DNA from: an uncultured virus (IMG/VR IMGVR_UViG_3300031088_000645)
Lineage: Duplodnaviria > Heunggongvirae > Uroviricota > Caudoviricetes
Direction: 5' to 3' (one strand)
IMG/VR virus record: IMGVR_UViG_3300031088_000645
Length of the DNA stretch: 56,397 nucleotides
The notes beneath the pieces were generated by a model. The model had not been told where the DNA came from, ran no database searches, and worked only from the letters and a program-made list of their open reading frames with translations. A program made the position numbers and the translations under genes. Positions 17,483 to 56,397 of the stretch are shown piece after piece. The number at the start of each line of letters is the position of its first letter. The first letter of the stretch is position 1.

Positions 17483-18145
17483 CTAGTCGTCTTCCGACTC
17501 GTGAACTTCGAACTGGAAGTCCACGTCATCGTAAGGATCGACCTCCATGTCTGCCGTTCCTTCGAAGTTGTAGATATGTCCGTTCACACGGTGCTGAGGA
17601 ACGATGGTTAGTCGAGGGCTACCTTCGATGGTGATGTGCGGTGTGCTGCCCTGGTGGCACATCACGACAACGTTAGCGGTTCCTGAGACGGTAAGGTGCG
17701 TCTCTCCCGAGTTAGTCAGTGCGATGACAGCATTGCCGCTGTCTACTCGGAGGTTCGGCACATCAGCCCTAGCTCGTACGATGATGGGCGTGCCATCCTT
17801 GGGCGGAACGATAGTGAAGTCGCTGCTTTGGTTGGTGTTGTCGTCGGTGAGTTCGACCCAACGCACCTTTCCGTTGGACTGCGTACCATCGGCATCGTTG
17901 ATCAGATGGATGGACTCTCCAACACTGCCACCTTCACTTACAGCGTCATCGGTGAAGTCGAAATCATCGACGTAGCTCTGGGGGAAGTAAGGCGCTCCCT
18001 TACCTGGGTGGTGAATGAGGTTCACGGGTACGACAAGGCGGGGCACATCAGGAAGCTGACGGGAAGTAGTTGCGCCCTCTACCTTCTTGTGGACGTGAGT
18101 AGCCTTACCGTTCTTGTCAACGATGGGTGTCTTCTCGGTTGCCAT
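17483..18145 (-). CDS. IVDKNG-tagged protein, beta-rich unknown domain
   Basis: Starts MATEKTPIVDKNGKATHVHKK; GAAAGG SD. Confidence 0.7.
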   Translation of the reverse strand: MATEKTPIVDKNGKATHVHKKVEGATTSRQLPDVPRLVVPVNLIHHPGKGAPYFPQSYVDDFDFTDDAVSEGGSVGESIHLINDADGTQSNGKVRWVELTDDNTNQSSDFTIVPPKDGTPIIVRARADVPNLRVDSGNAVIALTNSGETHLTVSGTANVVVMCHQGSTPHITIEGSPRLTIVPQHRVNGHIYNFEGTADMEVDPYDDVDFQFEVHESEDD

Positions 18146-18171
18146 GATGATGCCTTTCGTATGTCGGTGAG

Positions 18172-18681
18172 TTAGTACAAGGGTTCTATCTCGGTGTGCT
18201 TTTCAGCAGTCTCGTGCAGCCCATAAGCTATTTCGAGTGGCTCTATTTCGAAGTCTGGTTCCACTCCCGATAGTTTAGAGAGGAACGGCTTTGCCGGTTC
18301 GAGATGATCGCCGCCCCACCTTGATAGTAGCCCCTTCTCGGTGTGAATACCCTCAATGTCGATGAGCCTTCCATCAGGTAGCCGGTTAACCATGTGCATC
18401 CACGGCGCACCTTCATCGATGCCCTCGGGAACCATCACGGCAACAGCCTCCCAGCCAAATTCACCCTCGGCAGTAGCGGCAAGTAGCCAGCAGTCACCTG
18501 ATGTGAACGCTTCTAGTTCAAGTGGATCAGTATCGAACTCGATGAATGGTTCTTGTGTGGTCTGGATGCTAGGCGTTAGCTCTGCGACTCGACTGGTCGT
18601 TGCTGAATCAGCGACATCGTTGTTGCGATGAACAGTCGTGTGCTTGCCATTCTTGTCGATGATGGCGGTGGGTGTTGTCAC
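18172..18681 (-). CDS. IVDKNG-tagged protein with papain/transglutaminase-like Cys-His-Asp motif
   Basis: GTG start after AAGGAG; AIIDKNGKHTTVH; FTSGDCWLLA...WMHMV...LIDIEG. Confidence 0.65.
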   Translation of the reverse strand: MTTPTAIIDKNGKHTTVHRNNDVADSATTSRVAELTPSIQTTQEPFIEFDTDPLELEAFTSGDCWLLAATAEGEFGWEAVAVMVPEGIDEGAPWMHMVNRLPDGRLIDIEGIHTEKGLLSRWGGDHLEPAKPFLSKLSGVEPDFEIEPLEIAYGLHETAEKHTEIEPLY

Positions 18682-18760
18682 TGATGCTCCTTGATGTAGC
18701 TCAATACTACCATCGGTATATGACAGCAGGGGTAGCGGGTACAATGAGGTAAAGGAGGAC

Positions 18761-19756
18761 ATGGCTATGCGCTCGCATCTCACCCCGAAAAAGATTGTTG
18801 ACAAGAACGGTCGTCACACCACGGTGCTTATCAACGACTCGAAATCATCGGCTCGTGGGTTGCCTACCGTTAGCGCCGTACCTTCTCAACCAATTCTTGA
18901 TGCTAAGGCTCATCTCCTGTCTCAGCAGGTGGACGAATACACGTGCGACAATCATGATGACTACGGCTGTCGTAAGGGATGCGTTCAGGGTCTTGCAAGG
19001 GACTGGTCACGTAAGCAAATCATGTCCAGTCCTGAGCAACAAGCAATCATTGCCGCTCACGGAATTACAGAGCTAGATACCAAGCGGATCTATGGTTCCA
19101 AGCTAGATGGCTGGGGTGAATGGGAAGTGAGAGACAAAAGCGATCCCGCCAAAAGAGCTACAGTTCGCGTGCCACTTCATCGTCCAGCCTTGGTTGACGA
19201 CATCGCCGCAATCGATAAGTCGATTATTCCTTCATTCGACTCTCCCGACGAGCTAAGCGCCTTTGTCGAAGATCTGTACGGTAGTAGTAATGTCACTCTG
19301 ACTTTCTACGAGCAGGGTCGTCACGTAGCGCAACTCAGCGATATCTTTGTGGACGCAGACCTACGCGGCTTGGGCATTGGTAACCACATCATGCAGATGA
19401 TCTCTCGATACGGAGATGAGCATGATGTTGCCATCACACTGTCCCCAACCGAAGGAGGCGATGGCTCTATCTATCCTGACGCTACCAACAAGGAGCTATT
19501 CGACAAGCACCGCGCGACCCATCAGTCTAGGGTATGGTCGTACTACGAGAGTCATGGCTATGAACGCAACATGGCGTACATGGGCTACTTCAAAAGAGTC
19601 GATACCGACAGTCAGTTGATGGGCGATCCAGAATTTGCAGACTCGCTCGATGCTGACTACTACAGCGAAGTACAGGGTGGCGTGATGGTGAGATACCCCA
19701 ATGGAAAGCCTTCTGAGAGGTTCTTCAAGAAGGCTGTTGCAGGACAGTCGATTTAG
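18761..19756 (+). CDS. IVDKNG-tagged GNAT acetyltransferase
   Basis: KKIVDKNGRHTTVLIN; GNAT motif A IFVDADLRGLGIG and motif B YYESHGY. Confidence 0.75.
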   Translation: MAMRSHLTPKKIVDKNGRHTTVLINDSKSSARGLPTVSAVPSQPILDAKAHLLSQQVDEYTCDNHDDYGCRKGCVQGLARDWSRKQIMSSPEQQAIIAAHGITELDTKRIYGSKLDGWGEWEVRDKSDPAKRATVRVPLHRPALVDDIAAIDKSIIPSFDSPDELSAFVEDLYGSSNVTLTFYEQGRHVAQLSDIFVDADLRGLGIGNHIMQMISRYGDEHDVAITLSPTEGGDGSIYPDATNKELFDKHRATHQSRVWSYYESHGYERNMAYMGYFKRVDTDSQLMGDPEFADSLDADYYSEVQGGVMVRYPNGKPSERFFKKAVAGQSI

Positions 19757-19802
19757 TACTAGGATGTAGTTATCACTTAGCCGCCTTCTTCCATAAGGAC
19801 TC

Positions 19803-20240
19803 ATGATGACGACCACCATTACCACCGCTCCCGCGACGATGACCGAGACCGTTCAGGGTCGATTCAACAACGCACTCAAGGCTATCCGCAAGCAGGGTGT
19901 CAGCACCCGCATGAACGCTCAGTCGTGCTGCACGGACTGTGACGGTCCTGAGGCGAGTGGTCACCCCGAGGTGGTGTGGACCTACGGCAGCCAGGAGGGT
20001 ACCTTCTCGTGGGTCGATGGTGTGATGGTCTACCGCAACATCATGAACATGGTCAAGCGTCGTACTGGCAGTGCGCAGCTTGACGCGATCTTCCGCGCGA
20101 ACGGGCGGGTCACCAAGCTCTACTTCAACCACACGTCGGTCGAGGCGGCTTCCATCGCCGCTATGGCGTTCAACGTCGAGGGCTTCGAGGTTGCTTGGGA
20201 TGGTGCCGACACCGAGTGCGTCATCGTGACCATCCGATAG
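19803..20240 (+). CDS. Hypothetical protein (CCxxC; possibly DUF6891-like)
   Basis: AAGGA SD; QSCCTDC and VAWDG motifs. Confidence 0.6.
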   Translation: MMTTTITTAPATMTETVQGRFNNALKAIRKQGVSTRMNAQSCCTDCDGPEASGHPEVVWTYGSQEGTFSWVDGVMVYRNIMNMVKRRTGSAQLDAIFRANGRVTKLYFNHTSVEAASIAAMAFNVEGFEVAWDGADTECVIVTIR

Positions 20241-20252
20241 CACTGCGGACAT

Positions 20253-20290
20253 ACGAAGCACCCCATCTTTCACGAGGTGGGGTGCTTCGT
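20253..20290 (+). terminator. Intrinsic terminator
   Basis: ACGAAGCACCCCA/TGGGGTGCTTCGT. Confidence 0.7.
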
Positions 20291-20375
20291 CGTTACCACA
20301 ATTTCAATCTAGTAATTTAGGGGTAGACCAGCCTGTATCCTGACTGTAAGTCAACAGAAAGATGGAAGGTACGCC

Positions 20376-21365
20376 TTGTCCACACCAGTAGAAATCGCGC
20401 CGAGAGAGCATAACGACATATGGGCTAAAGTTCGTCCAGCAGTGCTCAAAACTATCGTTGGATCGGTGGTTGCAGCAGCGCTAGTCGGCGTGACGGCAAT
20501 CGTGGTGGGTCAGTTTGGAACCATCCACCTCCAAGCCCTTTTCACCGTCATTCTCATCGTCGCATTTGCGCTCTTGACATGGTATGACGCAGAGGTGTCA
20601 GCAAAGCGTTCCAGCACGTTCGCGCTGATTGGGGTAGGTATCTCCGTCATTCTGCTCATTATCGGCATGTTCAAGATTTGGCTGCCACAGAGTTCCGACC
20701 TAGATACCGATTATGCCTACTACGATGACACATCCTATGACGTGGCGGAGAACTTTGGTCACTGGGTCTGGCTTGTCATCATCGCTAGGTTTGCACTTCT
20801 TCACGCTCACTTGCTTCTGAACATCCACCGCAAGTACAACACTCCGGTTCTCAGCGTTGTCGCCAACATCACCCTAGGACTCATCGCCCTATTCGGAATC
20901 TTGCTTGCACTCCCCAGCATCTTCGACAACACCGACTTCGGTGAAGCTTACTGGCGCTTATTTGGTGCGGTGTTCATCCTCGATGTGCTCGGTACCGTTT
21001 TGATTCCTCTGGCTTACGCTTTGTTCTCACCCAAGAAGAGCGCTGAAGAAGAGTATAAGCGTTGGGATGAACAGCCTCATGTACCGGTAGTGCAGCAAGA
21101 GCAGCAGTTCCAAAGTCCTGCTCGTCAGCAGCTACATGAGCATCGTGACGTTCCGAGCCAGCCTGTAGCGCACAGAAGCACCTTCCAGCCCGCTACAAGC
21201 CCCGTAGAGCCTACAGAGCAGACGTTTGGTCCGACTGGCGCTGTCAAGTTTGAAAAGCGCCCTACGCCCAGCAAGAAGCTCGCCTGGCCGCGTTACGAAG
21301 ACGGCACTCCACTACCTATCAATCCTGACGGAACGCCTAACTTCGATGATGTGGAGCGCTTTTAG
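20376..21365 (+). CDS. Multi-pass membrane protein with Pro/Gln-rich tail
   Basis: About 6 TM segments; GGAAGG SD before TTG. Confidence 0.75.
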   Translation: MSTPVEIAPREHNDIWAKVRPAVLKTIVGSVVAAALVGVTAIVVGQFGTIHLQALFTVILIVAFALLTWYDAEVSAKRSSTFALIGVGISVILLIIGMFKIWLPQSSDLDTDYAYYDDTSYDVAENFGHWVWLVIIARFALLHAHLLLNIHRKYNTPVLSVVANITLGLIALFGILLALPSIFDNTDFGEAYWRLFGAVFILDVLGTVLIPLAYALFSPKKSAEEEYKRWDEQPHVPVVQQEQQFQSPARQQLHEHRDVPSQPVAHRSTFQPATSPVEPTEQTFGPTGAVKFEKRPTPSKKLAWPRYEDGTPLPINPDGTPNFDDVERF

Positions 21366-21829
21366 TAGACCGGGTAGTCTTTGAGGACATCACCATCGAC
21401 GATTGACCTTAGCTGAAAGTCAGTGACTTCCATCCTGTCAACTTCGCCCTCATCTCCACTGGTAACGTCGGACCACTTGACGGTATCGGTGGAGATGATG
21501 GAGTTGATGCTGAATGCGATCAGGTCGTCATAGATAATGATCTCTTGACCTAGACGGACAGCATCTTCCATGCTGCTTGGGTTCAGGATGATGAACCCGA
21601 TATCAACAACATCTGTGCGCGTCATGTAGAAGTCATGCACCAGTTCGGAGAGTTCTGCGAGGGTCTCTTTGTTCTTGAAGTCCGTGCCTGTCATGGCGTG
21701 AAGTACGGACGTAATCTCGCTGCCATCCTTGTTGAAGTAGGTGATAGCCACGAACCTACCTTCACCGAATTCGGCTGTAATGAAAGCAAGGTTGTTGATC
21801 ATTTCATTGGGCGCATCGATGGCTGTCAT
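21362..21829 (-). CDS. Hypothetical protein, paralog of 24051..24533
   Basis: TTGACT-17-TAAACT-N6-ATG leaderless start; WSD...EGEVDRM...DFQL. Confidence 0.65.
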   Translation of the reverse strand: MTAIDAPNEMINNLAFITAEFGEGRFVAITYFNKDGSEITSVLHAMTGTDFKNKETLAELSELVHDFYMTRTDVVDIGFIILNPSSMEDAVRLGQEIIIYDDLIAFSINSIISTDTVKWSDVTSGDEGEVDRMEVTDFQLRSIVDGDVLKDYPVY

Positions 21830-21910
21830 GCGCACAGTTTACGTCCCTGTTAAGCCATAGTCAATCGATTCGGTTCATTGCCAGCATGTACTTAGTTTCA
21901 TGAGTGCGGT

Positions 21911-22885
21911 ATGATTCGGATTATGTACAGCGACGATGACAGGACTGAGTTCAATCATCCGTGGGCGCGTCTTGGTTCCAAGGCATCTAAATCTGTAGGT
22001 AGTAGCCGATGGTTGACTAGACCCAACCAAGCGTTGCTGCCGGATGTCATGTCGATGCAAGAGTTCATCATCCATGCAGAATCGGACAGTAACGAAAACT
22101 CACAGCCCAGCCGTGACACTACCCTAAGGTTCGCTGCTTCTCATGAGTGGACTACGTATATCGACAAGCATCAAAACCGTCAAGACGGCGATATCAAGCT
22201 CAGAAAAGAAATCGACACATCGTTCGGCGGTAACAAGCTGAACCCAGCAGACATCATTGATATCTGGGACAACAGCCCTTACCTGTACAAGATGCTGCTT
22301 GACGATTTTGCAGCATCAAAGTTCGTGGAGTACCAGTTAATTGATGACAAGATACAGCCAGTAAATCGTTTAGGGGTACATCTCGACGACCTGACTTTTA
22401 GCTCGTATGCGTCACCGATGATCGAATACGTCCTGGTCAAGGAGCCTACTGCAATGATGGTGAGTATCGTCACCATCTACAATGAAGAGGCAATCAGCAG
22501 CAGGATGTTCAAAAGGTTTTCTCGCAATGGTCTTAGCATTGTTGACTTTGCCGAGGGTACACGGATGTTTGAAGGCATCGAGTCCATCTATGTCGATACC
22601 ATTATCAAGCATCTCCGGGAAGAGCTTTACTCCGAGCCTCACGAGGTGAAAATACCCATCGCCGCATTGTCATCAGGCGATGGTTTCGCGCGGTGGATCT
22701 ATGAGGTCTATCTTCGTCAGAGCAAGAACATTGACATCTCCGACTTGGAAGAGATTGCCACCACAACTCTGTTGCAATATGCCCGCGAGGGAATCTTCAA
22801 GCCGCGTGTGGTGAAGAATTGTTGCCACAGTGGTATCGACCCCGCACTTGCTGGTGAGATGCTACGGACTAGCGTTGACAATTAG
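21911..22885 (+). CDS. Hypothetical protein with shared C-terminal DID module
   Basis: Ends CCHSGIDPALAGEMLRTSVDN; start may be 21923. Confidence 0.7.
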   Translation: MIRIMYSDDDRTEFNHPWARLGSKASKSVGSSRWLTRPNQALLPDVMSMQEFIIHAESDSNENSQPSRDTTLRFAASHEWTTYIDKHQNRQDGDIKLRKEIDTSFGGNKLNPADIIDIWDNSPYLYKMLLDDFAASKFVEYQLIDDKIQPVNRLGVHLDDLTFSSYASPMIEYVLVKEPTAMMVSIVTIYNEEAISSRMFKRFSRNGLSIVDFAEGTRMFEGIESIYVDTIIKHLREELYSEPHEVKIPIAALSSGDGFARWIYEVYLRQSKNIDISDLEEIATTTLLQYAREGIFKPRVVKNCCHSGIDPALAGEMLRTSVDN

Positions 22886-22909
22886 TGCATTACCAGCTAA
22901 TCTATGAGT

Positions 22910-23179
22910 ATGAAGCTTTCAACTCTCACCGCAGAAGCCGTCGATGCCTACGACTACGTGCACACGTATGTCGATAAGGGCGACCACTCGCGTGTTTTCG
23001 AGGATCTTGAGTCTCGCAACGCAACGGGTGTCGTTGTCAAGTTCGGTGATGCTGTTGTGGCTCACTGGCTCGACTTCGAGTCGTACTTCGGACTCGGAGA
23101 TCCCGAGCGTGAGCAGTCGATGCTCGATGAGGTCGTGGCGGGATACCTCGCAAAGCTCTTCCCGTCCGCTGGAAGCTGA
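22910..23179 (+). CDS. Small hypothetical protein
   Basis: TTGACA-17-TAATCT-N6-ATG leaderless start. Confidence 0.65.
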   Translation: MKLSTLTAEAVDAYDYVHTYVDKGDHSRVFEDLESRNATGVVVKFGDAVVAHWLDFESYFGLGDPEREQSMLDEVVAGYLAKLFPSAGS

Positions 23180-23188
23180 CCAACAGGT

Positions 23189-23770
23189 ATGGATAAGCCG
23201 ATTACATGGGTAGAGCGGATGGGTTCTAGTCATTCCGATTTTCTCGATCAGATAGGCGTTCCTGACGATAAGCGTTCTTTCGCTTGGTCGAACTACCATG
23301 TCACTCGTTTCGCACTCGATGAGGTGCTGAGTGAAGATGGCACTTACGCGATGGCTCAACTGGTAGGTGACCAGTACCTAGGCAAGATGGTAGAAAGCAT
23401 CGCAGAGGAAGCGATCCTCCTTTGGAGATACGCCAATATCAAGGAAGATGGCAGTCTTCCAGGAATTATCGTCACCCATGCTGCCCGTATCCTCATGATA
23501 GAGATAGAGCGCTATCAGGAAGCCATCTACACGCTGACTAGTTCTCCTGCGGAGATGTATTCGCTGTTGATTGTATCGCTTGCGTCTAGCAAGAAGATGG
23601 GTCAAGAGATATTCATGGAGCGGTGGTATCCGATTGTTCGTGCTTACCCAACGCGCGTAATCTTGCCAGTGCTAGACAATGGTGGTAGTCTCGAATCACT
23701 AGAGAAGTTCCACCAAAACGGGTTGGATAGTGACATTCTTCTCTCATTCACTACATCAAACAGGAGTTGA
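23189..23770 (+). CDS. Hypothetical protein with shared C-terminal DID module
   Basis: Ends FHQNGLDSDILLSFTTSNRS. Confidence 0.7.
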   Translation: MDKPITWVERMGSSHSDFLDQIGVPDDKRSFAWSNYHVTRFALDEVLSEDGTYAMAQLVGDQYLGKMVESIAEEAILLWRYANIKEDGSLPGIIVTHAARILMIEIERYQEAIYTLTSSPAEMYSLLIVSLASSKKMGQEIFMERWYPIVRAYPTRVILPVLDNGGSLESLEKFHQNGLDSDILLSFTTSNRS

Positions 23771-24012
23771 AGATGACTGCATCAATCGATGCTGGCGTGA
23801 CGATGAACGCCGCGCTGCATTACAGCGTTGTTCTTGCGGTGTGGGACGATGAGTATGAAGAGTACGTTTCGTCTAGCAGTCGCCGTGACAACTGGGTTGA
23901 TGAGTACTACTTCGACAGCGAAGAGTCTGCTCTGGAATTCCTTCGCGAACACCAGATCAACGCCGCCTACATCAGCGATGACGAAGACATGTTCAAGCTC
24001 GTCTTCCCATGA
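23767..24012 (+). CDS. Small acidic hypothetical protein
   Basis: Coupled to the upstream gene; terminator follows. Confidence 0.55.
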   Translation: MKMTASIDAGVTMNAALHYSVVLAVWDDEYEEYVSSSSRRDNWVDEYYFDSEESALEFLREHQINAAYISDDEDMFKLVFP

Positions 24013-24049
24013 AGAAAGCCCCTCAGGTTTCCATCTGAGGGGCTTTCTT
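24012..24049. terminator. Bidirectional intrinsic terminator
   Basis: AAGAAAGCCCCTCAG/CTGAGGGGCTTTCTT. Confidence 0.75.
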
Positions 24050-24050
24050 G

Positions 24051-24533
24051 CTAGAAGAGTGCTTCGACCGCTTCTGTGTTCTGAATAGCTCCTAGCTGCC
24101 AGTCAGAGAGTTTCATGCGATCAACGAGACCTTCGGTCTTGGTCGTTCTGTCTGACCAGGCAAGTCCATCGGATGAGATCGCAGCGACATTGCGCAGGTG
24201 GTGCTTAGATGCAGCTTCACTCATGACGAACGAGAGTGTATTAGCTTCACCCACATCTTTGCTGATCGCGAGGGTGGTGACAAAGTGCGCTCGGGTGTGC
24301 TCTAGGTTCGTGATCTGCCATAGAAGAGCGTCTACGCGGGTGGTCACTTCATCCTCTGAAACGCCGTGCTGGAACGCGAGAACTACCGCGTCGAGGAACT
24401 GCGACTTGGCATCGAAAATACCGAACGCCACAACCACTTCAGGGTTGGGCAAATTTGTCGCGAACAGAGCGTTGTTGATCCACTCTGAGGGGTCAATGAC
24501 CTGAGACGTTCGGGCATTAGTTCTGTTGAACAT
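24051..24533 (-). CDS. Hypothetical protein, paralog of 21362..21829
   Basis: TTGACA-17-TAGTAT promoter and GGAG SD; WSD...EGLVDRM...DWQL. Confidence 0.65.
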   Translation of the reverse strand: MFNRTNARTSQVIDPSEWINNALFATNLPNPEVVVAFGIFDAKSQFLDAVVLAFQHGVSEDEVTTRVDALLWQITNLEHTRAHFVTTLAISKDVGEANTLSFVMSEAASKHHLRNVAAISSDGLAWSDRTTKTEGLVDRMKLSDWQLGAIQNTEAVEALF

Positions 24534-24662
24534 GCATTCTCCATTCGGTGATATAGATACTAGTTGTAGTTCAATCGATTGTCAAATCGGCAAGTCTAGA
24601 ATCGGGTCGATGGGTTTGCCAACTTTCCTTGGTGGGTACCAAATGAATGCAATACTGTCTGC

Positions 24663-24938: not shown

Positions 24939-25127
24939 ATTAATGCTTGACATAGTTTGAACAGTAAGATAGTTTGATAGTAGTGAGTCTCTAACCAATA
25001 CTCATCTGTCTCTCGACTAACCATCGAGACAAGCAGAGATCAGGCTGCTCTTTTCATTCAATATTCAACTACCTTTCGTTCCTGATGAGAACAAAAACGA
25101 AGACTAACCACCTTTGGAAGGTATCAG

Positions 25128-25808: not shown

Positions 25809-25834
25809 TCCACCCTACTCGGAGATTCGAGATC

Positions 25835-42359: not shown

Positions 42360-43256
42360 ATGGGTGTTCGTAGCCTGATACGCAAGCCGATAGTGGACAA
42401 GAACGGCAAGAACACCACAGTACTCGTACGACCAGACCAAGGGTCAAATGACCGCGCTTCTGCTGCACCGGTACCTCAAAACTCCGGTCCTTTCGTTCCT
42501 GTAATCCCACCATCTCCAGAGCCTTTCGCGCCCAAAGATCCCAACAGCAAAATGCTTTCTAGCTGGAATGGCGAGAGGCTTCAACCAGTCAAGATTGTCA
42601 CCGAAACTGGCGGGCAATGGGATCTTGCTCCCGAGGGATTCTCTGGCGCAAAATGCTTCACGTGTGGTTCGTTCTTCACTGATGAACAGGTATCATCAGG
42701 AAGCTACATCAAGTGCCTTCGATGCCTCAAAGAGACACGAGGTGGTCGTATTGAGAGTGGCATTAGGTACAGCGATGTGCACCTCCTATCGCAAGAGGCA
42801 ACCCGTGAAAACGATTGGTACCACATCACCCTGAGTGCTAATTGGGACACCGATATCACCACGGCTAGTCCCATGAACCAGCCATATGTTCATGTCGGCT
42901 CACTTGCCGCTGCGGAGACCAGAATGAAAGACCTCATTGACTCGCACAAGAGTTCTGAGAGATTTAGCAAGCATCTCGCACCCTCGGACGATCTAGTCTT
43001 CTACTGCTACCGCATCAAGATGGTCGAAGATGCCGACCTATCTCCTAACATCATTACTGATGCTGATTTTGACGCACCCGAATCCGTAGCTCAGATTAGA
43101 GCAGAGTCTCTGAAAGAGGATGGAGAGTCCTACGCGCAGTATGAGTTGTTCGGCGCAACTAGGTACGTCAACGAGTATGAGTCTCACGGTTCCATCTCAC
43201 TGATTACCCACCCCACAGCCATCGAAGTCGTCGAGCGATTCGTCATGGAACGGTAA
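42360..43256 (+). CDS. IVDKNG-tagged protein: Zn finger + ADP-ribosyltransferase-like domain
   Basis: RKPIVDKNGKNTTVLV; two CxxC; WYHIT, VHVGSLAAA, YVNEYESHGSISLI. Confidence 0.6.
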   Translation: MGVRSLIRKPIVDKNGKNTTVLVRPDQGSNDRASAAPVPQNSGPFVPVIPPSPEPFAPKDPNSKMLSSWNGERLQPVKIVTETGGQWDLAPEGFSGAKCFTCGSFFTDEQVSSGSYIKCLRCLKETRGGRIESGIRYSDVHLLSQEATRENDWYHITLSANWDTDITTASPMNQPYVHVGSLAAAETRMKDLIDSHKSSERFSKHLAPSDDLVFYCYRIKMVEDADLSPNIITDADFDAPESVAQIRAESLKEDGESYAQYELFGATRYVNEYESHGSISLITHPTAIEVVERFVMER

Positions 43257-47276: not shown

Positions 47277-48350
47277 ATGTCCAATCCCAACCTCATCAGG
47301 AAGTCTATTGTCGATAAGAACGGCAAGGCGACAACCGTTCATATCAGCATGGGTAAACTGGACCCCTCGCAAGATACCTCTCAGCCTCGAATCCATGCTG
47401 CTTCAACGCCGCCGCAGCTTAGTTCCGCACCGGGTGTCTACCAGTTCTCTATCGCGGTATCGCGTAATGACTATAACGTCTATCTACCCCGTAAGAAGAA
47501 TCCACGCGGCGTTTTCTATAAGGACCATATCATTATCGATGTTCCTGTTGTCGATGTCGAAGAAGCTCCCATTTCCATGTCCTACGACGACGTAGATTAT
47601 CGCCACTTCGATGGGAATATCTACAAGCTGGAGAGGGATGAAAACGGAATCGTCATTGAAGCAGAAGACATGTTCAGCGGCTCATACAGCCTAGAGCACT
47701 TCGATAGGTACGCAGAAGACACGCCGGATTACCAGGGTGTCTTCAACGAGCATGCTGACGACTTTATAGTGATTGATGGCGAGGTCTACAAGAAGACATC
47801 AGAGCCGAAGTACGTTATCGACGTAAGTCACCACATGTGGGGCGACACAATGAAGATCGGTGTGAGCGACAGCATGTACGACAGCAGAATCAGCAACGAA
47901 AACAACTTCTCTGCCTTGGAATACGACCAGGCAGTAGCTAAGGCTAGTGAGATTATCGATGGTATGACAGAAGCCTATAATTCAGGTCGAAATTCAGACA
48001 GCGACTGGAATATTAAGGCGGCTCGTCAAAGCCTTGATGAGCTAGAAAAGATTGAGGTGTCTGACCCCGCTGGCGTGGGAACAACTTATGAATTCCCCGT
48101 CCGCATCGAGTATCCCGAATTCCACAGCTATGACAGTAACGATTGGAACTCGGATAACGATCACAATGCAGGTGAGCGATTCACCAAGGCGATGACTGCG
48201 TACCGCGACATCATCCAGTCCACCCCAGGTGCTATTACCGAAACCGAGGCGGGCGCGAAGAAAATTGAGTGGTCTCGACTTCCAGATGGACTCAAGAGCA
48301 ACTACCAGAGCGCTCTCAGTTGGGCTTCCGATCACGACTACCTAGTCTAA
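47277..48350 (+). CDS. IVDKNG-tagged protein, unknown acidic domain
   Basis: MSNPNLIRKSIVDKNGKATTVHIS; GGAG SD. Confidence 0.7.
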   Translation: MSNPNLIRKSIVDKNGKATTVHISMGKLDPSQDTSQPRIHAASTPPQLSSAPGVYQFSIAVSRNDYNVYLPRKKNPRGVFYKDHIIIDVPVVDVEEAPISMSYDDVDYRHFDGNIYKLERDENGIVIEAEDMFSGSYSLEHFDRYAEDTPDYQGVFNEHADDFIVIDGEVYKKTSEPKYVIDVSHHMWGDTMKIGVSDSMYDSRISNENNFSALEYDQAVAKASEIIDGMTEAYNSGRNSDSDWNIKAARQSLDELEKIEVSDPAGVGTTYEFPVRIEYPEFHSYDSNDWNSDNDHNAGERFTKAMTAYRDIIQSTPGAITETEAGAKKIEWSRLPDGLKSNYQSALSWASDHDYLV

Positions 48351-48364
48351 TCGGTAGGTACAGG

Positions 48365-48392: not shown

Positions 48393-48448
48393 TCTCGTTA
48401 ACGGTCCCTCATCTTGACTTTTGCGTGACAATGAAGTACATTCAGAGA

Positions 48449-49534
48449 ATGACTGAACTTTATGCGAAGTGGCTCGATGCAGTATTCAAGACGGGAGACC
48501 GTGTTCTTCTCACGTTCCCCGATGGAGAGAAGATCCTCTGGACCGCTAATCTGAATGCTGCTGCACACGGCGACCTCGGAGATGCTGCTATTGATGAGCA
48601 GGGGCGTAATGTTGCTCCCCTCAACTCCTACCACACCCTCGCGGCAGGTAAGTTCCTCGAACCCATCTCAGTGCGCACGCTCGACACTAACGAGCCGGGT
48701 ATCGATGTGGACAGTCTTAGTCCTATCAACCACATCGATGATGTTCCGTTCGGTGATCTTGTTGTTGCTACGCTCTCAGATGGTTCTCTCATTGAGTTCG
48801 TTCATAACGACCATGAAGAGAGCATTGGTGGCGATAGCGCTCACACGCGATACACCGACATCAACATCGATAACTCGTACGCATCACTTTGGGTTGGCAC
48901 CCGCGCAAATGACGGAAGTCATGATGAGGTAGAGGTCGATGATGCCGCAGCAAACAGTGTCGCTCCGACAAATCCTGCGCCTAATGGTGGACCAGTAGAT
49001 ATCAACGGTGGCAGCATCGTTGTCTACTCCGATGGAACGTATGTCGTCAATGGCGTGGACGGTAGCGGCAACCGCACCACATCCAAGCCCCTGCCCGCGT
49101 TCCAGCCGCCGAGCTTCTCGCTGGTGATGGATTTCCCGCCATCTGAGCTTTGGATGTACCCGAAGGATTACCTCGTCGGGCTAGACAAGGCAGGTGTCGT
49201 TGGCGCTCAGTTCCTGAACGCACACGATCTGTTCGGTCACAAGTTCCATATCTACGATGCTGATGAGCTAAAGCAGTGGGTCAAGGACTTCACTGAGGTT
49301 GCGCTGAGCAAGAAGGCATGGGAACTTGATGAGGCTTTCTGGAAGTACTCGCTGACCTACTTCGTCACTCGACCTGCTACCAACGTCAAGACACCAGAGG
49401 ATGCTCTTGAACTGCATCCTGTTGCTAAGCGTGTGGGTGTCGAATTGTTCTTCGGTGGCGCGGCTACTCTCGTAAACAACCCAGATGATGACAGTGAGAC
49501 GACCAACTCCATCCGTTCCTTCTTCATCAACTAG
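48449..49534 (+). CDS. Hypothetical protein
   Basis: TACATT-N6-ATG leaderless start (MTELYAKW). Confidence 0.7.
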   Translation: MTELYAKWLDAVFKTGDRVLLTFPDGEKILWTANLNAAAHGDLGDAAIDEQGRNVAPLNSYHTLAAGKFLEPISVRTLDTNEPGIDVDSLSPINHIDDVPFGDLVVATLSDGSLIEFVHNDHEESIGGDSAHTRYTDINIDNSYASLWVGTRANDGSHDEVEVDDAAANSVAPTNPAPNGGPVDINGGSIVVYSDGTYVVNGVDGSGNRTTSKPLPAFQPPSFSLVMDFPPSELWMYPKDYLVGLDKAGVVGAQFLNAHDLFGHKFHIYDADELKQWVKDFTEVALSKKAWELDEAFWKYSLTYFVTRPATNVKTPEDALELHPVAKRVGVELFFGGAATLVNNPDDDSETTNSIRSFFIN

Positions 49535-49948: not shown

Positions 49949-51949
49949 ATGTCATTCACTAGTAGACTAGTAGCTAGGCTGTCATCTGATAGAGCCGAGA
50001 ACTCTATCATGCAGACCATTACTATCGCTGTGTCTGCAATCCTCATTGCCTCTGGGCTTGTTACCGCACCTGGCTTGATCAATAACGCCAGAGACAACAA
50101 TGCCAGAACCGACCTTGCGAACATCGCGTACTCGGAAGAGTTCGTCATGGCTGATACAGGTAGGTACATCTCGAAGTTACGCGGGGAATCATCACTTTCC
50201 TTTTACATGTCTGAAAGTGGAGCCGGTGTCAAATTGACACTCTCTAGTTCTGTGTCAGATCAACAAGCCATTGTGTGTAACAATCCTGAATGGGCTTACC
50301 TCATCAAGGCAACATCATCGTCCGGCAAGACATTCTTCCGTGCGTCTAACTCTGCGGCTGTAAGTTCTGATCTTAGCGCGGTTCAGATAGCACAATGTAT
50401 TGCGGACGATCCTCAGTTCCCTGGCTTCTTGGAAGATTCGACGGCACCGGGTGAATCTCCCGGAAACAGTGGTAACTCACCCAGCGCCCCTATTATCACC
50501 AACACCGCGCTACCTAATGGTTCAGTCGGACAACCGTATTCATACCAGTTTGCTGCAACGGGTTCACCACTATTTTCTTCCACCGACCTACCGAACGGTC
50601 TGGCGCTATCCACAAGTGGTCTACTTAGCGGCACACCCACTGAAAACGGTAAGACGACTTTCCATATCAAGGCTCAAAACCAGGGTGGCTCTTCAACCAT
50701 CGAGACGTTCCTGACTGTGGGTCAGTCGCCTAACCTCAACGCGGTTCCCAACAAGCTACCTGACACGGCGATAGACACACCGTATAGCTACAAGGTTGAG
50801 GCAAGTGGATTCCCTGCTCCTGTGATTTCAGCATCTGGTTTGCCTGCGGGTCTCTCTATGACTACGGATGGACTGATTTCGGGAACTCCTAAGGATGTTT
50901 CGTCCTATACCGTCACGCTTACTGCCACTAACTCTTTGGGCAAGGTGACCAAGACTGCGACCATCAAATCAGTTACTACGTATTCCAAGGCTACGCTTAA
51001 TACCGCAACCATCAAGCTTCCTACCGCCGTAATTGGTGAAGAGTACGATGGGTACCAGTTCAGCGCTCAGGGTTCTCCAGACCCCGTATTTACAAGCAAT
51101 AGGTCGTTGCCAACAGGAATGACCCTGAGTGAAGATGGCGAACTCAGTGGTACACCTACGGACTTCGGTAGTAGTGGTCAAGGCACAACAGCACTGTTTG
51201 TCAATTTGACCAACGTCAAGGGCATCAACGTCTATTCGATTCCACTGCCCAAACGATATGCAGGTGACCTTCCGGTTATGACCACTACGGCAGAGATGCC
51301 TACCGGCGTTACTTCTGAACCCTATGCCGGTTTCACAGTCAGTGCATCCGGTACGCCGAAGCCCACTTACAGCGCGTCGGCATTACCTGCTGGCTTAACC
51401 ATCAATAAAGACACTGGTGTGGTTTCGGGAACACCTACAGCATCATTCAATTCTGATGTCGTATTTACAGCAACAAATCAGGTTGGTTCCGCCTCTGTTA
51501 CCAAGCGCCTGACTATCTCGTTCGCAGCATATTCGTACACTCAGGACTTCCAAACAGTAACCAACGGCAATCAACTAGCAGAGTGGAAGCAAAAGAGATC
51601 GCAAGACTCTACTCAAACTGATGTCACTGTTTTCCGTCAAAGTTCGAGCTTGGTATATCTTTCGTCATCTGGTAAGGGTATTGATTACTTCCTGACGTTG
51701 AACTTCGCACCGGGAATTTATGAGGTGAGTGCTGACGTATTCCACACTCAGGGGGCGTTACCGTGGACCATATCGAATGGTAACGGTAGCTATACCTCGG
51801 CACCTCTCAAAGCCTATGCGTTCAATACCATCAGCACGACTCTCAACTTCACTCAATCTGGTAATCAGCAAATCAAGATATCGCTACCAGCTAATGCATC
51901 ATCAGGAACATTGCAGCTAGACAACGTAAAGGTAACTCGCGTAGGATAA
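49949..51949 (+). CDS. Pilin-like N-terminus + four putative Ig (He_PIG) domains + C-terminal beta-sandwich adhesin
   Basis: AENSIMQTITIAVSAIL hydrophobic helix; repeated LPxGLx...GxxSGTP. Confidence 0.75.
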   Translation: MSFTSRLVARLSSDRAENSIMQTITIAVSAILIASGLVTAPGLINNARDNNARTDLANIAYSEEFVMADTGRYISKLRGESSLSFYMSESGAGVKLTLSSSVSDQQAIVCNNPEWAYLIKATSSSGKTFFRASNSAAVSSDLSAVQIAQCIADDPQFPGFLEDSTAPGESPGNSGNSPSAPIITNTALPNGSVGQPYSYQFAATGSPLFSSTDLPNGLALSTSGLLSGTPTENGKTTFHIKAQNQGGSSTIETFLTVGQSPNLNAVPNKLPDTAIDTPYSYKVEASGFPAPVISASGLPAGLSMTTDGLISGTPKDVSSYTVTLTATNSLGKVTKTATIKSVTTYSKATLNTATIKLPTAVIGEEYDGYQFSAQGSPDPVFTSNRSLPTGMTLSEDGELSGTPTDFGSSGQGTTALFVNLTNVKGINVYSIPLPKRYAGDLPVMTTTAEMPTGVTSEPYAGFTVSASGTPKPTYSASALPAGLTINKDTGVVSGTPTASFNSDVVFTATNQVGSASVTKRLTISFAAYSYTQDFQTVTNGNQLAEWKQKRSQDSTQTDVTVFRQSSSLVYLSSSGKGIDYFLTLNFAPGIYEVSADVFHTQGALPWTISNGNGSYTSAPLKAYAFNTISTTLNFTQSGNQQIKISLPANASSGTLQLDNVKVTRVG

Positions 51950-53174: not shown

Positions 53175-54179
53175 ATGCCTTTTCTCCCATCTCGACTACA
53201 GATGTCTGATGATCATGGTGAAAATTCCATCATGCAGACCATCACCATCGCGGTTTCTGCGATCCTGATTGCCGCTGGTCTTGTTACTGCTCCTGGTCTC
53301 ATCAATAACGCCCGGGACAACAATGCGACTACTGAGTTAGCCAACATCTCTTACGGTGAGGCAGCCTACCTCGCTGAGAACGGTAAGTACACATCGAGCG
53401 TAGATGAACTCAGTAATGGCTCTGTCAAGATTACCAAGGGCGGTGATTCGCAAACCAACATCTTCGCGGGCGACAACTGCTTTGGAGCATTCTCTAAGTC
53501 AACAAGTGGTAAGTACTTCTACGCATCTTCTGAGAAGAGCGGTGTCACCCTCATTGGCACAACATGGTCTGCCACCAAGCCTGCTGATTATCCCGCTAAC
53601 TGCCAGTGGCCGACCACGAGTAAGCAGGCTGTTGGCTCTTCCTTTACCAACCTTGTACCCAACCCAGGTTTTGAAGCGGCAACAATCGGAAACATCATCG
53701 CGCCCGGTTCTGTAACCTACACCAAGGGTACTGTTGGTGCTAACGGCAATCTTTCGTTCAAACGCACATCCACAGCAGATCCCTTCATCATGCTTGTTGT
53801 TCCTGCTCAGGCGAACGCGGGCGATACCTTTACATGGAAATTCGATATCTGGACCGATTCTCCTACTCCTGTCAATGCTGAGGGATTCTTCTTCCGTCTA
53901 CCCAACGACATCTCACTAATGGACACCAGGACCGCCTACAGCGTTTCTTCTACTAAGCAGACTGTCACCATCACCGGTAAGGTTCCTGCCGGAACGAGCG
54001 GTTCTGAACTTCAACTAATCTTCCGCCCTGTCATGAGTGACACTTACCGCACATATGTGGACAACGTTATGTTGGTCAAAGGTAATTACAGTGGAAGCTA
54101 CTTCGATGGTAACTCCGCAAACGCTCAGTGGTCGGGAACCCCGAATGCATCACCCTCAACCCTAAGCATGGAGAAATAA
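53175..54179 (+). CDS. Pilin-like protein with carbohydrate-binding-like C-terminal domain
   Basis: GENSIMQTITIAV...; NLVPNPGFE...YVDNVML...YFDG. Confidence 0.7.
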   Translation: MPFLPSRLQMSDDHGENSIMQTITIAVSAILIAAGLVTAPGLINNARDNNATTELANISYGEAAYLAENGKYTSSVDELSNGSVKITKGGDSQTNIFAGDNCFGAFSKSTSGKYFYASSEKSGVTLIGTTWSATKPADYPANCQWPTTSKQAVGSSFTNLVPNPGFEAATIGNIIAPGSVTYTKGTVGANGNLSFKRTSTADPFIMLVVPAQANAGDTFTWKFDIWTDSPTPVNAEGFFFRLPNDISLMDTRTAYSVSSTKQTVTITGKVPAGTSGSELQLIFRPVMSDTYRTYVDNVMLVKGNYSGSYFDGNSANAQWSGTPNASPSTLSMEK

Positions 54180-55606
54180 TGCAACACCCGAATCTACTTT
54201 TAGATGATGCTGCCGAAAACAGCATCATGCAAACCATCACCATTGCTGTCTCAGCCATTCTGATTGCCTCTGGACTTGTCACCGCGCCGGGTCTAATCAA
54301 CAACGCCCGTGACAACAATGCGACAACCGACCTATCGAACATCGCTTATGCCCAGGAAGTCTATCTTGGAGATCAGGGTACTTATGCCGACCTACCTACG
54401 CTAGTCGAGGCTGGTAAGTCACAGAGCGCTGACAAGCCTGCTGCGCGCATTACGCTTTCCGCAAAGACAAGCAACCAAGAAGTCCGCTTCTGTAACACGC
54501 CTGATGCCTGGGTGGCAAAGGCGACATCACCATCTGGAAAGACTTTCTATCGCTCTTCAGACTCAGCGACAACCAGTAGCAGCCTGTCTGAAATCAAGCT
54601 TGCCAGTTGCCTCGACACCACCAACTTTGAAGTTGCTCAGCCGGAAGAAGGCGGAAGCAACCCGGGCGATGGTAATGACAATGGCGGCGACAACGGCGGG
54701 AGCAATCCTGGTTCAGGAACTCCCGAGGAACAGCCTGGCTATGTGAACCCTACACCTCCCACTATTGTTGCTGACCCAGAGGGATACAAGGCGGTCTCTT
54801 ATGACCCAGACTACGATGCTATCGTTCTTCCTCTCAACAGAGGCTCTGCTGAGTTCCAGAAGTTCATTCCTAGCACCCCAAACAACCTCGACCAGAAGCT
54901 AACTACCATTACGGGAGTTACCACCAAGGGCGCTCCTGGAATTACTACAGAGGACTTGAGTGGCGGTTACACCTACATCCTTCCTCAGGATGCCACCAAC
55001 AGGGTGATTCTCGGAATGAACCCTGGGTTTGATGCCACTGATGAAGAGATGTATCTCTTCTACAAGGACAGTGTTGTTCAGTACACCGTAGAAGGATCTG
55101 ATGTTGTCAACGCTATCCACATTTCTACGCCAGACGCAGACAACCCCGCAGTCCTTTATAGAGGTTGGGTTCCTGTAGGAGCGGTAGCACCGATGCCAAG
55201 TACTAACTATGTATCGCGTTATGCACTGTCAGACAAGTACATTGCTCCTGACTACAGCACGTATTACGGAATGCAGTACCAAGGATTCATCAACAACGCT
55301 GCCAACATGTCCAATGTTCGCGCTGGTAACTACCTCAACGTCAATCAGGGTAAGGACATTCAAATTGCAACAGTACGTGCTTTCGTAGACGGCGAAGAAA
55401 TCACCATCAACGGTTCAGGATGGGTTGTTAGCTATGACAGAGAAAACACCGCTCACTTCGGTGTTCGTAACGTATCTGGTGGCAAGGTAGGTGCTAACGC
55501 ACAAGAAGAGGCAGCCTTCTTTGCTCGTGGTGTTATGACCTTCACCGTGCCGAGCGACAATCTGTCACCTCGACAGATCAGCAAGGTGTCCTTCGGTAAC
55601 GGATAA
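54179..55606 (+). CDS. Pilin-like protein with unknown C-terminal domain
   Basis: TAATG coupling; AENSIMQTITIAV...; G/N/D-rich linker. Confidence 0.7.
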   Translation: MQHPNLLLDDAAENSIMQTITIAVSAILIASGLVTAPGLINNARDNNATTDLSNIAYAQEVYLGDQGTYADLPTLVEAGKSQSADKPAARITLSAKTSNQEVRFCNTPDAWVAKATSPSGKTFYRSSDSATTSSSLSEIKLASCLDTTNFEVAQPEEGGSNPGDGNDNGGDNGGSNPGSGTPEEQPGYVNPTPPTIVADPEGYKAVSYDPDYDAIVLPLNRGSAEFQKFIPSTPNNLDQKLTTITGVTTKGAPGITTEDLSGGYTYILPQDATNRVILGMNPGFDATDEEMYLFYKDSVVQYTVEGSDVVNAIHISTPDADNPAVLYRGWVPVGAVAPMPSTNYVSRYALSDKYIAPDYSTYYGMQYQGFINNAANMSNVRAGNYLNVNQGKDIQIATVRAFVDGEEITINGSGWVVSYDRENTAHFGVRNVSGGKVGANAQEEAAFFARGVMTFTVPSDNLSPRQISKVSFGNG

Positions 55607-55615
55607 CACACTACG

Positions 55616-55653
55616 CAAAAGAGCCTCACTGCTTTGGTGGTGAGGCTCTTTTG
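55616..55653 (+). terminator. Intrinsic terminator
   Basis: CAAAAGAGCCTCAC/GTGAGGCTCTTTTG. Confidence 0.75.
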
Positions 55654-55708
55654 TTTGTTTCAATGACGGTCGTAAGTTGTCGATACAATAGGGCGTAGGA
55701 AGGTAACA

Positions 55709-56397
55709 GTGAGCAATCTCGTACTCAAACCAATCGTTGACAAGAATGGGAAGCATACCCATGTTCGCGTTAGCCCTGACGGTAAAAACGCCTCTAAGCG
55801 TCTCTCGCCGTCTTTGAAGCCTTCGGTGTCCACCCACAACCCTACGGCGGCAAAAGTCCCTGAGCCGTCTCCTGTGGCTTCTGCGGGTCGTAATGAAGAT
55901 TCTGTGATGTTCATAAAGCCGTGGAACAAGATTCAACTTGAGCACACCACATTTGAGTATGAAGGCATGGACTGGGAACTTGCTCCCGAGGGCTACTCTG
56001 GCGCATATTGTGACAGGTGCAGGTCATTCTTCACCGTCGAAGAAATTGAAGAGGCTGACAATAGGACGAAGCTTCTGTATTGCCAAATGTGCAACCATGT
56101 TCACTCCACCGGGCAGTTGGCTTCGGCAGTGCGATATACCGACCGTCAATTCTTCGACAAAGAAGCGGTTCGCGACACCGAGTGGTACCACATCAGCACC
56201 AAGTCGAATTGGGAAGAAGCCATTACCGAGATGGCGGAATCCGAGCAGCCTTTGATTCATGCAGGAAGTCTCAATGCGGCAGAAAGTCGAATGAAGTACA
56301 TCAAGACGATTACCGATGAAGACATTCATGTAGCAAAACTGGATAACCCTATCCATCATGCTGCATGGGGAGACAAAGCGAAGTTCTACCGGTATAC
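55709..56397 (+). CDS. IVDKNG-tagged Zn finger + ART-like protein, paralog of 42360..43256; 3' truncated, absent from ORF track
   Basis: GTG after AGGAAGG; translates LKPIVDKNGKHTHVRV...WELAPEGYSGAYCDRC...CQMC...WYHIS...IHAGSLNAAESRMK; open to window end. Confidence 0.75.
   Translation, partial: MSNLVLKPIVDKNGKHTHVRVSPDGKNASKRLSPSLKPSVSTHNPTAAKVPEPSPVASAGRNEDSVMFIKPWNKIQLEHTTFEYEGMDWELAPEGYSGAYCDRCRSFFTVEEIEEADNRTKLLYCQMCNHVHSTGQLASAVRYTDRQFFDKEAVRDTEWYHISTKSNWEEAITEMAESEQPLIHAGSLNAAESRMKYIKTITDEDIHVAKLDNPIHHAAWGDKAKFYRY

Follow-up and report, generated by a model that had tools for sequence, protein, structure and literature searches.

What purpose is served when unrelated proteins of one mobile element all begin with the same short peptide? 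This question is raised by a 56,397-nucleotide stretch of DNA from an uncultured virus assigned to the Caudoviricetes (IMG/VR record IMGVR_UViG_3300031088_000645), which we refer to in its entirety as the window. A sequence-only reading of the window had proposed that six of its proteins share a modular address label that routes a library of enzymes into a virion head or a conjugation channel for delivery into the next host. The first part of that proposal is strongly supported by the analysis reported here, in which the shared peptide (the tag) was found in 672 protein clusters and at least 122 cargo clusters, stands at the N-terminus and is selected as a peptide. The second part, delivery, is supported circumstantially, by anti-restriction and host-modifying cargo and by a VirB4-fold ATPase and an FtsK-like translocase on elements that carry the tag. 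We tentatively favour, with somewhat less than even confidence, the view that the peptide is a modular tag which recruits proteins to a conjugative type IV secretion system (T4SS) for co-transfer.

Translated in six frames, the window contains the tetrapeptide DKNG six times, against 0.17 occurrences expected from amino-acid composition, and every occurrence lies 10-13 residues downstream of the start codon of an open reading frame (ORF). These are exactly the six genes that had been named, and the peptides quoted for them are exact (Table 1). The six aligned N-termini give the consensus x-[PKAS]-I-[VI]-D-K-N-G-[KR]-x-T-[TH]-V, and a purine-rich, Shine-Dalgarno-like stretch precedes the start in six of six genes. 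A 20-residue motif hidden Markov model (HMM) scored the six proteins at 29-36 bits, with E values of 4e-10 to 7e-8 in a search space consisting of the window and G001, a 202,737-bp IMG/VR contig. The S/P/A-rich linker of the earlier proposal was recovered as a hydrophilic, low-complexity stretch rich in S, P, A and T following the tag in each protein.

Table 1. Location of the tagged genes and of other features discussed, by position in the window or in contig G001
Feature	Sequence	Position	Strand	Product	Tag	Asp codon	Motif score (bits)
Tagged protein A	window	17483..18145	-	220 aa	MATEKTPIVDKNGKATHVHKK	18118	36.4
Tagged protein B	window	18172..18681	-	169 aa, GTG start	VTTPTAIIDKNGKHTTVHR	18657	31.6
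Tagged protein C	window	18761..19756	+	331 aa, divergent from B	...TPKKIVDKNGRHTTVL	18800	29.4
Tagged protein D	window	42360..43256	+	298 aa	...IRKPIVDKNGKNTTVL	42396	
Tagged protein E	window	47277..48350	+	357 aa	MSNPNLIRKSIVDKNGKATTVH	47313	34.1
Tagged protein F	window	55709..56397	+	GTG start, runs past window end	VSNLVLKPIVDKNGKHTHVR	55739	34.7
Type I-E cas genes	window	5-992	+	end of cas5, then cas6e			
Secreted proteins	window	25790-27232, 27481-28245, 28304-29719	+	signal peptide ending G-F-[TS]-A-S			
S26 signal-peptidase match	window	29731-30597	+	weak match			
Putative RNA ligase fragment	window	39029-39439	+	136 aa			
Pilin-headed proteins	window	49949-51949, 53175-54179, 54128-55606	+				
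Pilin-headed proteins	G001	6775, 31065, 31728, 81954, 113359					
tRNA array	G001	64899-81841		64 tRNA genes and tmRNA			
J-domain protein	G001	101698-102468		membrane-anchored			
Type I-E cas genes	G001	114277-121760		cas3-cse1-cas7-cas5-cas6e			
PF18909 protein	G001	131966-132700	-	dATP/dGTP diphosphohydrolase N-terminal domain			
AAA_10 ATPase	G001	146395-149157		920 aa			
FtsK-like protein	G001	177.6 kb		1030 aa			

The six cargos had been described as all different, and they reduce to about four or five types. Proteins D and F are paralogs (40% identity) that combine a Zn ribbon with an ADP-ribosyltransferase (ART)-like domain, as had been proposed. In D, the tag and a P/S-rich linker are followed by a CxxC...CxxC zinc ribbon, whose cysteines are invariant in eight of eight relatives, and by a C-terminal domain that is ART/RES-like by its model. 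The AlphaFold2 (AF2) model of D, with a predicted local distance difference test (pLDDT) value of 76 overall, folds the tag as a beta-hairpin with strands 7-12 and 18-23 and DKNGK at the turn (pLDDT 52-67 in the tag) and leaves residues 26-42 disordered. Comparison of this model by Foldseek and VIA-align placed ParT, MbcT, RES and NatT at the top, followed by pertussis S1 and exotoxin A. Protein F shares 90.8% identity with the 304-aa database protein P0061. The cargo of protein B is a small domain with a conserved Cys-Trp, which stands alone in the window; in relatives it is fused upstream of the D-type Zn-ribbon/ART-like module, and B joins the D/F cluster via these two-domain relatives. Protein B matches no Pfam or PHROG family, and its alignment with a papain-like tagged protein of G001 is confined to the tag. 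The GNAT acetyltransferase proposed for protein C is weakly indicated, the Pfam Acetyltransf_1 match lying at its cut-off (20.7 bits, E 5e-4) and that of Acetyltransf_7 below its own (E 4e-4). The linker of protein A leads into a beta-rich repeat cargo that matches no known family in Pfam or PHROGs; the protein is 98.6% identical to database protein P0064, and its cargo cluster has nine members. Protein E gave no match in the copies of Pfam and PHROGs used and is 98.3% identical to P0032, a protein with a precomputed PF27633 label.

The distribution of the tag was established at the protein and DNA levels. An exhaustive hmmsearch of 1.84 billion representative proteins yielded 672 clusters (50% identity) with the tag at E<=1e-3, and the match starts at residue 1-16 in all of the best 150 of these 672; the motif is N-terminal rather than mostly internal in the matches listed. 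A word-indexed search of a 5.8-billion-protein collection, using a profile built from 23 N-termini, returned 305 proteins at E<=10, the best 120 of which scored 47-66 bits. When these 120 are pooled with five other homologs of D, DKNG is found at residue index 8-33 in the 125 proteins, and beyond 13 only where the called start is extended. All matches listed in this search come from metagenome sources. A degenerate DNA pattern applied to 2.9 million IMG/VR contigs hit 64 loci, six of which are true and lie without exception on G001, the remainder being chance internal matches. G001 contains 17 tagged ORFs, with the tag N-terminal in all 17. A metagenome DNA scan, for which a closer alignment was used, gave 210 profile matches in 65 loci (738 kb), up to nine per 20 kb, at 44-55% GC.

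Searches of described sequences and families returned nothing comparable. A tblastn search with the tag against PLSDB plasmids and INPHARED phages (50,697 records) produced chance matches only (E>=5), a near-identity DNA search of plasmids and phages with window positions 17483-25000 found nothing, and none of eight near-start matches in a DNA-pattern scan of genome contigs showed the tag continuation (among at least 120 matches listed). The ESM Atlas returned leads with scores of 0.76-0.82, none of them named. The N-terminal 40 residues of the six window proteins matched no Pfam or PHROG family even at E<=1, and the same segment of cargo-cluster representatives matched no Pfam family (122 representatives, E<=1e-3) and no PHROG family (126, E<=1e-4); by these two libraries the tag is not an already described domain. 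A likeness of the motif to the N-terminus of what is probably a Bacteroidota uL4 protein was judged to be chance. Full-text searches of the literature for the motif and the concept, supplements excluded, found no description of such a tag. In the libraries and literature searched, the tag, its scale and the family of elements that carries it appear undescribed.

The anatomy of the tag was derived from 299 of 304 unique tagged proteins, with the Asp of DKNG taken as position 0. The prevailing residues are P 74%, T 71%, P 72%, I 90% and V 72% at positions -5 to -1, D 100%, K 99%, N 100%, G 100% and K 83% at 0 to +4 and, after the variable +5, T 95%, T 87%, V 91%, H 74%, K 70% and K 44% at +6 to +11. 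Beyond this core, position +13 is often acidic, followed by S, A, T or G and by an Arg at +20 (34%) or +21 (22%), after which an A/P/V-rich stretch gives way gradually to the cargo. Of 188 genes aligned at their starts, 171 encode the Asp at residue 9-13. Across 189 distinct DNA instances the invariant Gly is encoded by GGC (94), GGT (64), GGA (18) and GGG (13) and the invariant Asp by GAC (125) and GAT (64), while both Thr positions use all four codons; upstream of the start-aligned genes no conserved motif beyond the Shine-Dalgarno was found. Because synonymous codons vary at invariant residues and nothing is conserved upstream, selection acts on the peptide and not on the DNA or mRNA. One metagenome protein of 770 aa, P0126, the only multi-copy case among the best 150 matches, carries three hairpin copies, at its N-terminus, near residue 190 and near residue 430. 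With two of its three copies internal, the hairpin therefore acts as a module in its own right. Tag and linker together are hydrophilic and contain no Sec, Tat, lipoprotein or prepilin signal-peptide h-region.

What the tag heads was examined by clustering the cargos, defined as the sequence after residue 45, by BLAST. The 295 tagged cargos formed 122 clusters, including 64 singletons, and a Pfam match (E<=1e-3) was obtained for 14 of the 122 representatives and for none of the other 108. Matches comprised GmrSD_N/DUF262, LPD29, ArdC-N with MPTase-PolyVal, ArdA, SprT-like, ADPrib_exo_Tox, NUDIX, PolyA_pol (by PHROGs a tRNA CCA-adding enzyme), DUF7007, DUF7226 and LRV/HEAT, together with weak matches to GNAT, HD_4 and PGDYG; Tox-PLDMTX was found on one tagged protein of G001. 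PHROG matches, present in 16 of 126 cargos, are nearly all to families of 'unknown function' and none is structural. The recognisable cargos are anti-restriction and host-modifying domains, and most belong to the polyvalent-protein repertoire. A transmembrane-like segment (19-residue window, mean Kyte-Doolittle >=1.6) was present in 2 of 295 tagged proteins versus 221 of 693 untagged ORFs. Tagged proteins are small (median 241 aa, 5-95% range 129-389 aa), mostly with a single cargo domain and a few two-domain forms (P0140, P0181), and an acidic cargo stands behind a basic tag. These properties fit proteins that are moved. If the proteins do act in another cell, the presence of overtly toxic folds makes sense.

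Candidate transfer machinery was found on G001. Its AAA_10 (Pfam) ATPase was modelled with AF2 using 21 homologs (pLDDT 72), and Foldseek aligned the model to TrwK/VirB4 of the R388 T4SS over approximately 850-880 columns (E 1.9e-20, template modelling score 0.48-0.53), ten orders ahead of HerA (6e-10) and further ahead of TrwB (1e-6). As modelled, the protein is a full-length VirB4-fold ATPase, and VirB4 is described in parts of PMC4027160 as the signature, ubiquitous protein of T4SSs. The surrounding 142-163 kb region encodes two lipoproteins, a 755-aa protein and proteins with two, 12 (1297 aa) and three (921 aa) transmembrane segments. The FtsK-like protein of the same contig has seven N-terminal transmembrane segments, an FtsK match of 7e-17 and weak TraB/EccC matches, and a CHAP hydrolase occurs on one relative contig. 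Sequence searches of the PDB with the VirB4-like, 921-aa and 755-aa proteins gave nothing useful, and prediction of a complex between the tag alignment and residues 340-1030 of the FtsK-like protein returned 'no answer' (score 0.00), which is evidence neither way. G001 also has an operon of two T2SSE genes, T2SSF and a prepilin peptidase, after which pilins are encoded.

The 28 VirB4-like homologs come from metagenome sources except for one short NCBI contig, and none was found in phage collection records. The closest (85-90% identity) lie on contigs reported as 805,269 and 494,976 bp, and contigs reported at those sizes are also listed for tagged proteins, including P0061, the homolog of window protein F. 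Distant homologs occur on 546-567 kb Curtobacterium plasmids, beside HA-domain and DinG-like genes. On one of these, NZ_CP126255.1 (545,759 bp), the homolog (22% identity over 59% of the query) lies within 359096-390640, where its neighbours are hypothetical, HA-domain and DinG-like helicase genes. The plasmid, which bears flagellar genes as well, may represent a distant relative of the carrier elements in a cultured host. The tag profile found no match on this plasmid, by a method that is uninformative on this point. Some of the homologs P0237-P0243 of the G001 ATPase reach 1227-1371 aa, and P0239 has homing-endonuclease/LAGLIDADG Pfam labels, which suggests inteins inside some VirB4-like ATPases and bears on the function of the tag neither way.

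In a second modular family, a type-IV-pilin-like N-terminal head (...AENSIMQTITIAVSAILIA...; ...AENSIMQTITIAVSAILIAAGLVTAPGLINNARDNNA...) is common to 32 proteins on 11 contigs, the window and G001 among them, with short members after the pilus operon of G001. The C-terminal domains of this family differ (He_PIG Ig repeats, BNR/sortilin and others), and from these sequences it resembles a collection of pilins with adhesin tips. Near tags in four sequences a membrane-anchored J-domain (DnaJ) protein is conserved, namely G001 and the relatives L259, L242 and L253; in G001 it adjoins an S26-like peptidase. The J-domain protein was considered as a tag receptor and dropped, as its non-J part is a multi-pass membrane domain. 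The S26 peptidase was likewise dropped as a tag-cleaving enzyme, since in the window it adjoins signal-peptide proteins, which are likelier substrates.

When over 100 unrelated soluble cargos carry a conserved N-terminal peptide and a flexible linker, the best explanation is that the peptide is a label for docking on one conserved receptor. We favour recruitment to a conjugative machine because of the cargo vocabulary, the toxin folds and the co-residence with VirB4, an FtsK-like protein and mating-type pili. In the mechanism that we propose, M-x(3-5)-[LT]-x-P-T-P-I-V-D-K-N-G-K-x-T-T-V-H-K-K would be an autonomous N-terminal recruitment tag, and each protein would consist of a short beta-hairpin, a disordered S/A/P/T-rich linker of 20-40 residues, in which an Arg often follows the Asp at a distance of about 20 residues, and the cargo. 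The tag would head a large, fast-evolving library of small, soluble, acidic effectors, comprising anti-restriction proteins, ADP-ribosyltransferase/RES-like enzymes, nucleases, NUDIX proteins, proteases, a CCA-adding enzyme and many unassigned domains. Through the hairpin, all of these cargos would dock on a single conserved receptor in the machine with which the element transfers its DNA. This machine would be a Gram-positive-style T4SS in which a VirB4 ATPase acts together with an FtsK-like translocase of the membrane and with polytopic membrane proteins, assisted by a type IV pilus with adhesin-tipped pilins. Cargos would enter the recipient with or before the DNA, and there they could weaken restriction and other defence systems and reshape the host ahead of expression of the element's genes.

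Several observations weigh against this reading. Binding of the tag to a receptor, the identity of this receptor as the T4SS and the exit of the proteins from the cell are inferred rather than observed. No relaxase was found in 164 G001 ORFs (Pfam, E<=1e-4), NCBIfam gave nothing above its cut-offs for 38 machinery candidates, and T4SS parts other than VirB4 are candidates only. The 56-kb window contains no VirB4 or FtsK-like gene, its link to VirB4 running via relatives and equal reported contig sizes. Known T4SS protein signals are C-terminal or internal, and an N-terminal hairpin would be unprecedented for a T4SS. The internal hairpin copies of P0126 speak more for a binding module than for a threaded signal at the N-terminus. 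Some features also point to phages: IMG/VR classes G001 as a provirus with a CheckV completeness of 96%, its array of 64 tRNA genes and a tmRNA (tag peptide ANASRNDFALAA) within about 17 kb would be less unusual in a large phage, domain-level PHROG matches (LamG, He_PIG and NUDIX; E 1e-9 to 7e-5) give a few window proteins a tail fiber, tail or portal label, and the FtsK-like protein has a weak 'terminase' PHROG match (1.2e-5).

The P0126 copies lead to the alternative that survives best, which we nevertheless consider unlikely, namely that the tag is an intracellular handle without transfer. The hairpin would bind a common cytoplasmic partner and the cargos would act in the producing cell; the partner might be an inhibitor, chaperone or adaptor of the element, a protease (the tag being a shared degron or serving timed clearance), the replication factory of the element or a conserved hub of the host, for which the ribosome, RNA polymerase, DnaK and the nucleoid are candidates. 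Extreme conservation of 16-20 residues across elements of 44-55% GC fits any conserved receptor, host receptors included, two of three hairpins in P0126 are placed internally as those of a binding module would be, the membrane-anchored J-domain protein is conserved near tags in four sequences, and a shared label would let a single regulator control many toxic enzymes. However, genes encoded by the element need no label merely to act after entry, the cargo is biased to functions that are needed when the DNA enters or earlier (ArdA, ArdC), as well as to toxin folds, and within 10 kb on either side of tags no protease, chaperone or inhibitor gene consistently accompanies the tagged genes.

The phage-like features raise the virion head that had been offered as one destination of the label. 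In that case the elements would be huge phages and the tag would send cargo to the prohead, to be injected together with the DNA, which we regard as improbable. There is precedent in T4 and P1, where short N-terminal peptides load unrelated proteins (parts of PMC7697877 and PMC9024508), and the provirus call, the tRNA and tmRNA array and the 16 cargos that match phage PHROG families of unassigned function agree with it. G001 further encodes a metabolic set (the ribonucleotide reductase NrdIEF, ThyX, dUTPase, NAD salvage, RtcB) and its own replisome (Pol III alpha, clamp, clamp loader, SSB, GyrA, NAD ligase), as in huge phages. Yet no capsid, portal, terminase, prohead protease or tail gene was detected in 164 G001 ORFs by Pfam or 116 by PHROGs, nor any virion family in 49-52 window ORFs or 71 neighbour families (34 with Pfam matches), in a search that covered approximately 1 Mb, only parts of contigs reported up to 654-805 kb, and in which divergent capsids can escape profiles. 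Beyond the domain-level LamG/Ig/NUDIX matches and the weak FtsK/terminase match, G001, the window and the neighbour families thus offer no virion family. True tags were found on one (G001) of 2.9 million IMG/VR contigs under the pattern used, the tag and the VirB4-like ATPase are both absent from the phage collection searched, and the core ATPase, as modelled, has the full VirB4 architecture. Between the two destinations first suggested, the conjugation channel is the better supported.

The same VirB4 and adhesin-tipped pili would also suit a contact-dependent antibacterial weapon, in which the tag is a secretion signal for toxins that kill competitors and does not serve establishment of the element. 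Cargo toxin folds (ADPrib_exo_Tox, Tox-PLDMTX, ART/RES-like and the DUF262 nuclease) agree with this, and in the XVIPCD effectors a single conserved module addresses many toxins to a T4SS (as set out in parts of PMC8740702). However, ArdA, ArdC, the CCA-adding enzyme, NUDIX and SprT are non-killing and useful only with incoming DNA, and no obvious immunity genes lie beside the tagged genes of the window, although no systematic search was made; we assign this explanation a low probability. That the tag is a functionless 5' cassette, a recombination or translation-initiation unit spread by gene shuffling, would account for the constant spacing through a whole N-terminus homologous from Met and for the visibly shuffled cargo modules, but is very improbable given amino acids that stay invariant while synonymous sites vary, the lack of conserved upstream DNA and conservation spanning elements of 44-55% GC.

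We take the carriers to be giant plasmid-like mobile elements of uncultured, probably actinobacterial, plant-associated bacteria. G001 has a GC content of 51% and the window 51.6%, and G001 also encodes WhiB, DUF2637 and HA-domain proteins. The parent contig of G001 is reported as 654,127 bp, and several tagged proteins reported there are absent from the 17 of G001; therefore, the element extends beyond the G001 borders. Near-identical DNA of window positions 42000-49000 was found in at least 20 listed runs from 15 studies, 13 runs containing at least half of the sampled words, with sample labels of phyllosphere, plant, leaf-litter, straw and food metagenomes, and one of these runs may be its source; no RNA run was among the matches listed. 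Window genes include an MFS transporter, two LamG proteins, phosphoesterases, a NUDIX protein, an RNA-ligase fragment and He_PIG proteins, most ORFs having no known family, and Rfam matched no family on the window. The ORF of the RNA-ligase fragment covers the first 130 of 342 positions of phrog_24030 (E 2.7e-27) and by this alignment is a truncated or split phage RNA ligase.

Both sequences bear type I-E cas genes (Table 1). No cas1 or cas2 was found among the scanned ORFs, and no direct repeats, hence no CRISPR array, follow cas6e at window positions 900-4000; the element-borne system may be adaptation-less. The PF18909 domain of G001 (E 2e-37), which adjoins NrdIEF, is associated with base-modified phage genomes. 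Two of the three secreted proteins of the window have LamG, the S26 match follows the group, and the arrangement presumably resembles fibre operons of the SipW/TasA type.

Little is understood of how conjugative elements, especially those in monoderm bacteria, choose the proteins that precede their DNA. Should the tag prove to be a label for transfer or packaging, it is a portable one of 20-40 residues, which makes the selection directly testable with reporter fusions, nominates hundreds of uncharacterised proteins as anti-defence or host-takeover candidates (108 of 122 cargo families being without Pfam) and could serve as a tool for bacterium-to-bacterium protein delivery. In a broader form, to which we give somewhat less than even odds, an N-terminal 20-residue beta-hairpin would define a new class of secretion signal, serving a bacterium-to-bacterium effector repertoire of Dot/Icm scale through a Gram-positive-type T4SS. 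The signal would then span 670 or more sequence clusters, no fewer than 120 cargo families and approximately 7-8% of the genes of each element; the elements would form an undescribed giant plasmid-like family of 200 kb to possibly more than 800 kb, widespread on plant surfaces, with tRNA arrays, adaptation-less type I-E CRISPR-Cas and adhesin-tipped type IV pili; and most cargo would be anti-defence or host-takeover enzymes not yet described. Whatever the mechanism, the tag is a sensitive marker that retrieves a coherent, apparently undescribed family of giant elements from plant-associated metagenomes.

A shared label on delivered effectors is already known as a concept, from the T4 capsid-targeting sequence (CTS), P1 Dar, XVIPCD and Dot/Icm. 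The thin pilus of IncI1 (R64) belongs to a conjugative element with a type IV pilus operon and shufflon-varied PilV adhesin tips. Its pilus ATPase, platform protein, prepilin peptidase and alternative adhesin tips resemble those described here, although R64 obtains variety by DNA inversion instead of separate pilin-headed genes, and the likeness concerns the companion system and not the tag. The CTS of T4 internal proteins and Alt, and P1 Dar, are like the tag in placing a short N-terminal peptide on unrelated cargo (parts of PMC7697877 and PMC9024508), and their cargo likewise includes ADP-ribosyltransferase and anti-restriction proteins (the same sources and passages of PMC5512222). They differ in that their sequences are unrelated to the tag, no virion genes were detected on the carrier elements, and their handful of tagged proteins contrasts with a minimum of 17 tagged genes in 200 kb and 122 or more families of cargo. 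In T4SSs, the XVIPCD of Xanthomonas/Stenotrophomonas and Dot/Icm also have one module or machine serve many unrelated proteins (parts of PMC8740702 and PMC8406263); the XVIPCD, however, is about 120 aa long, whereas the tag is an N-terminal hairpin of about 20 aa with a linker, and, unlike in the known systems, the host here is probably monoderm. In conjugation, anti-restriction and SOS-suppressing proteins (ArdC, the Sog/TraC1 primases and F-plasmid PsiB, SSB and ParB) move with plasmid DNA (sections of PMC8406263 and PMC5512222), as is envisaged for the tagged cargos.

In its cargo the library resembles the polyvalent proteins described by Iyer, Burroughs, Anand, de Souza and Aravind (2017), with which it shares the vocabulary of ArdC-N, MPTase, LPD29, SprT, DUF262/ParB-like, ART, GNAT and NUDIX domains. 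Those authors (PMC5512222) infer delivery with phage or plasmid DNA from architectures and contexts, and early action in the invaded cell, and cite ArdC and TraC1 as transferred full-length and T4 Alt as injected. Polyvalent proteins, however, string 2-15 domains into one giant protein, whereas the proteins described here have mostly one and at most two, each tagged, as if every polyvalent-protein domain were shipped separately under its own label.

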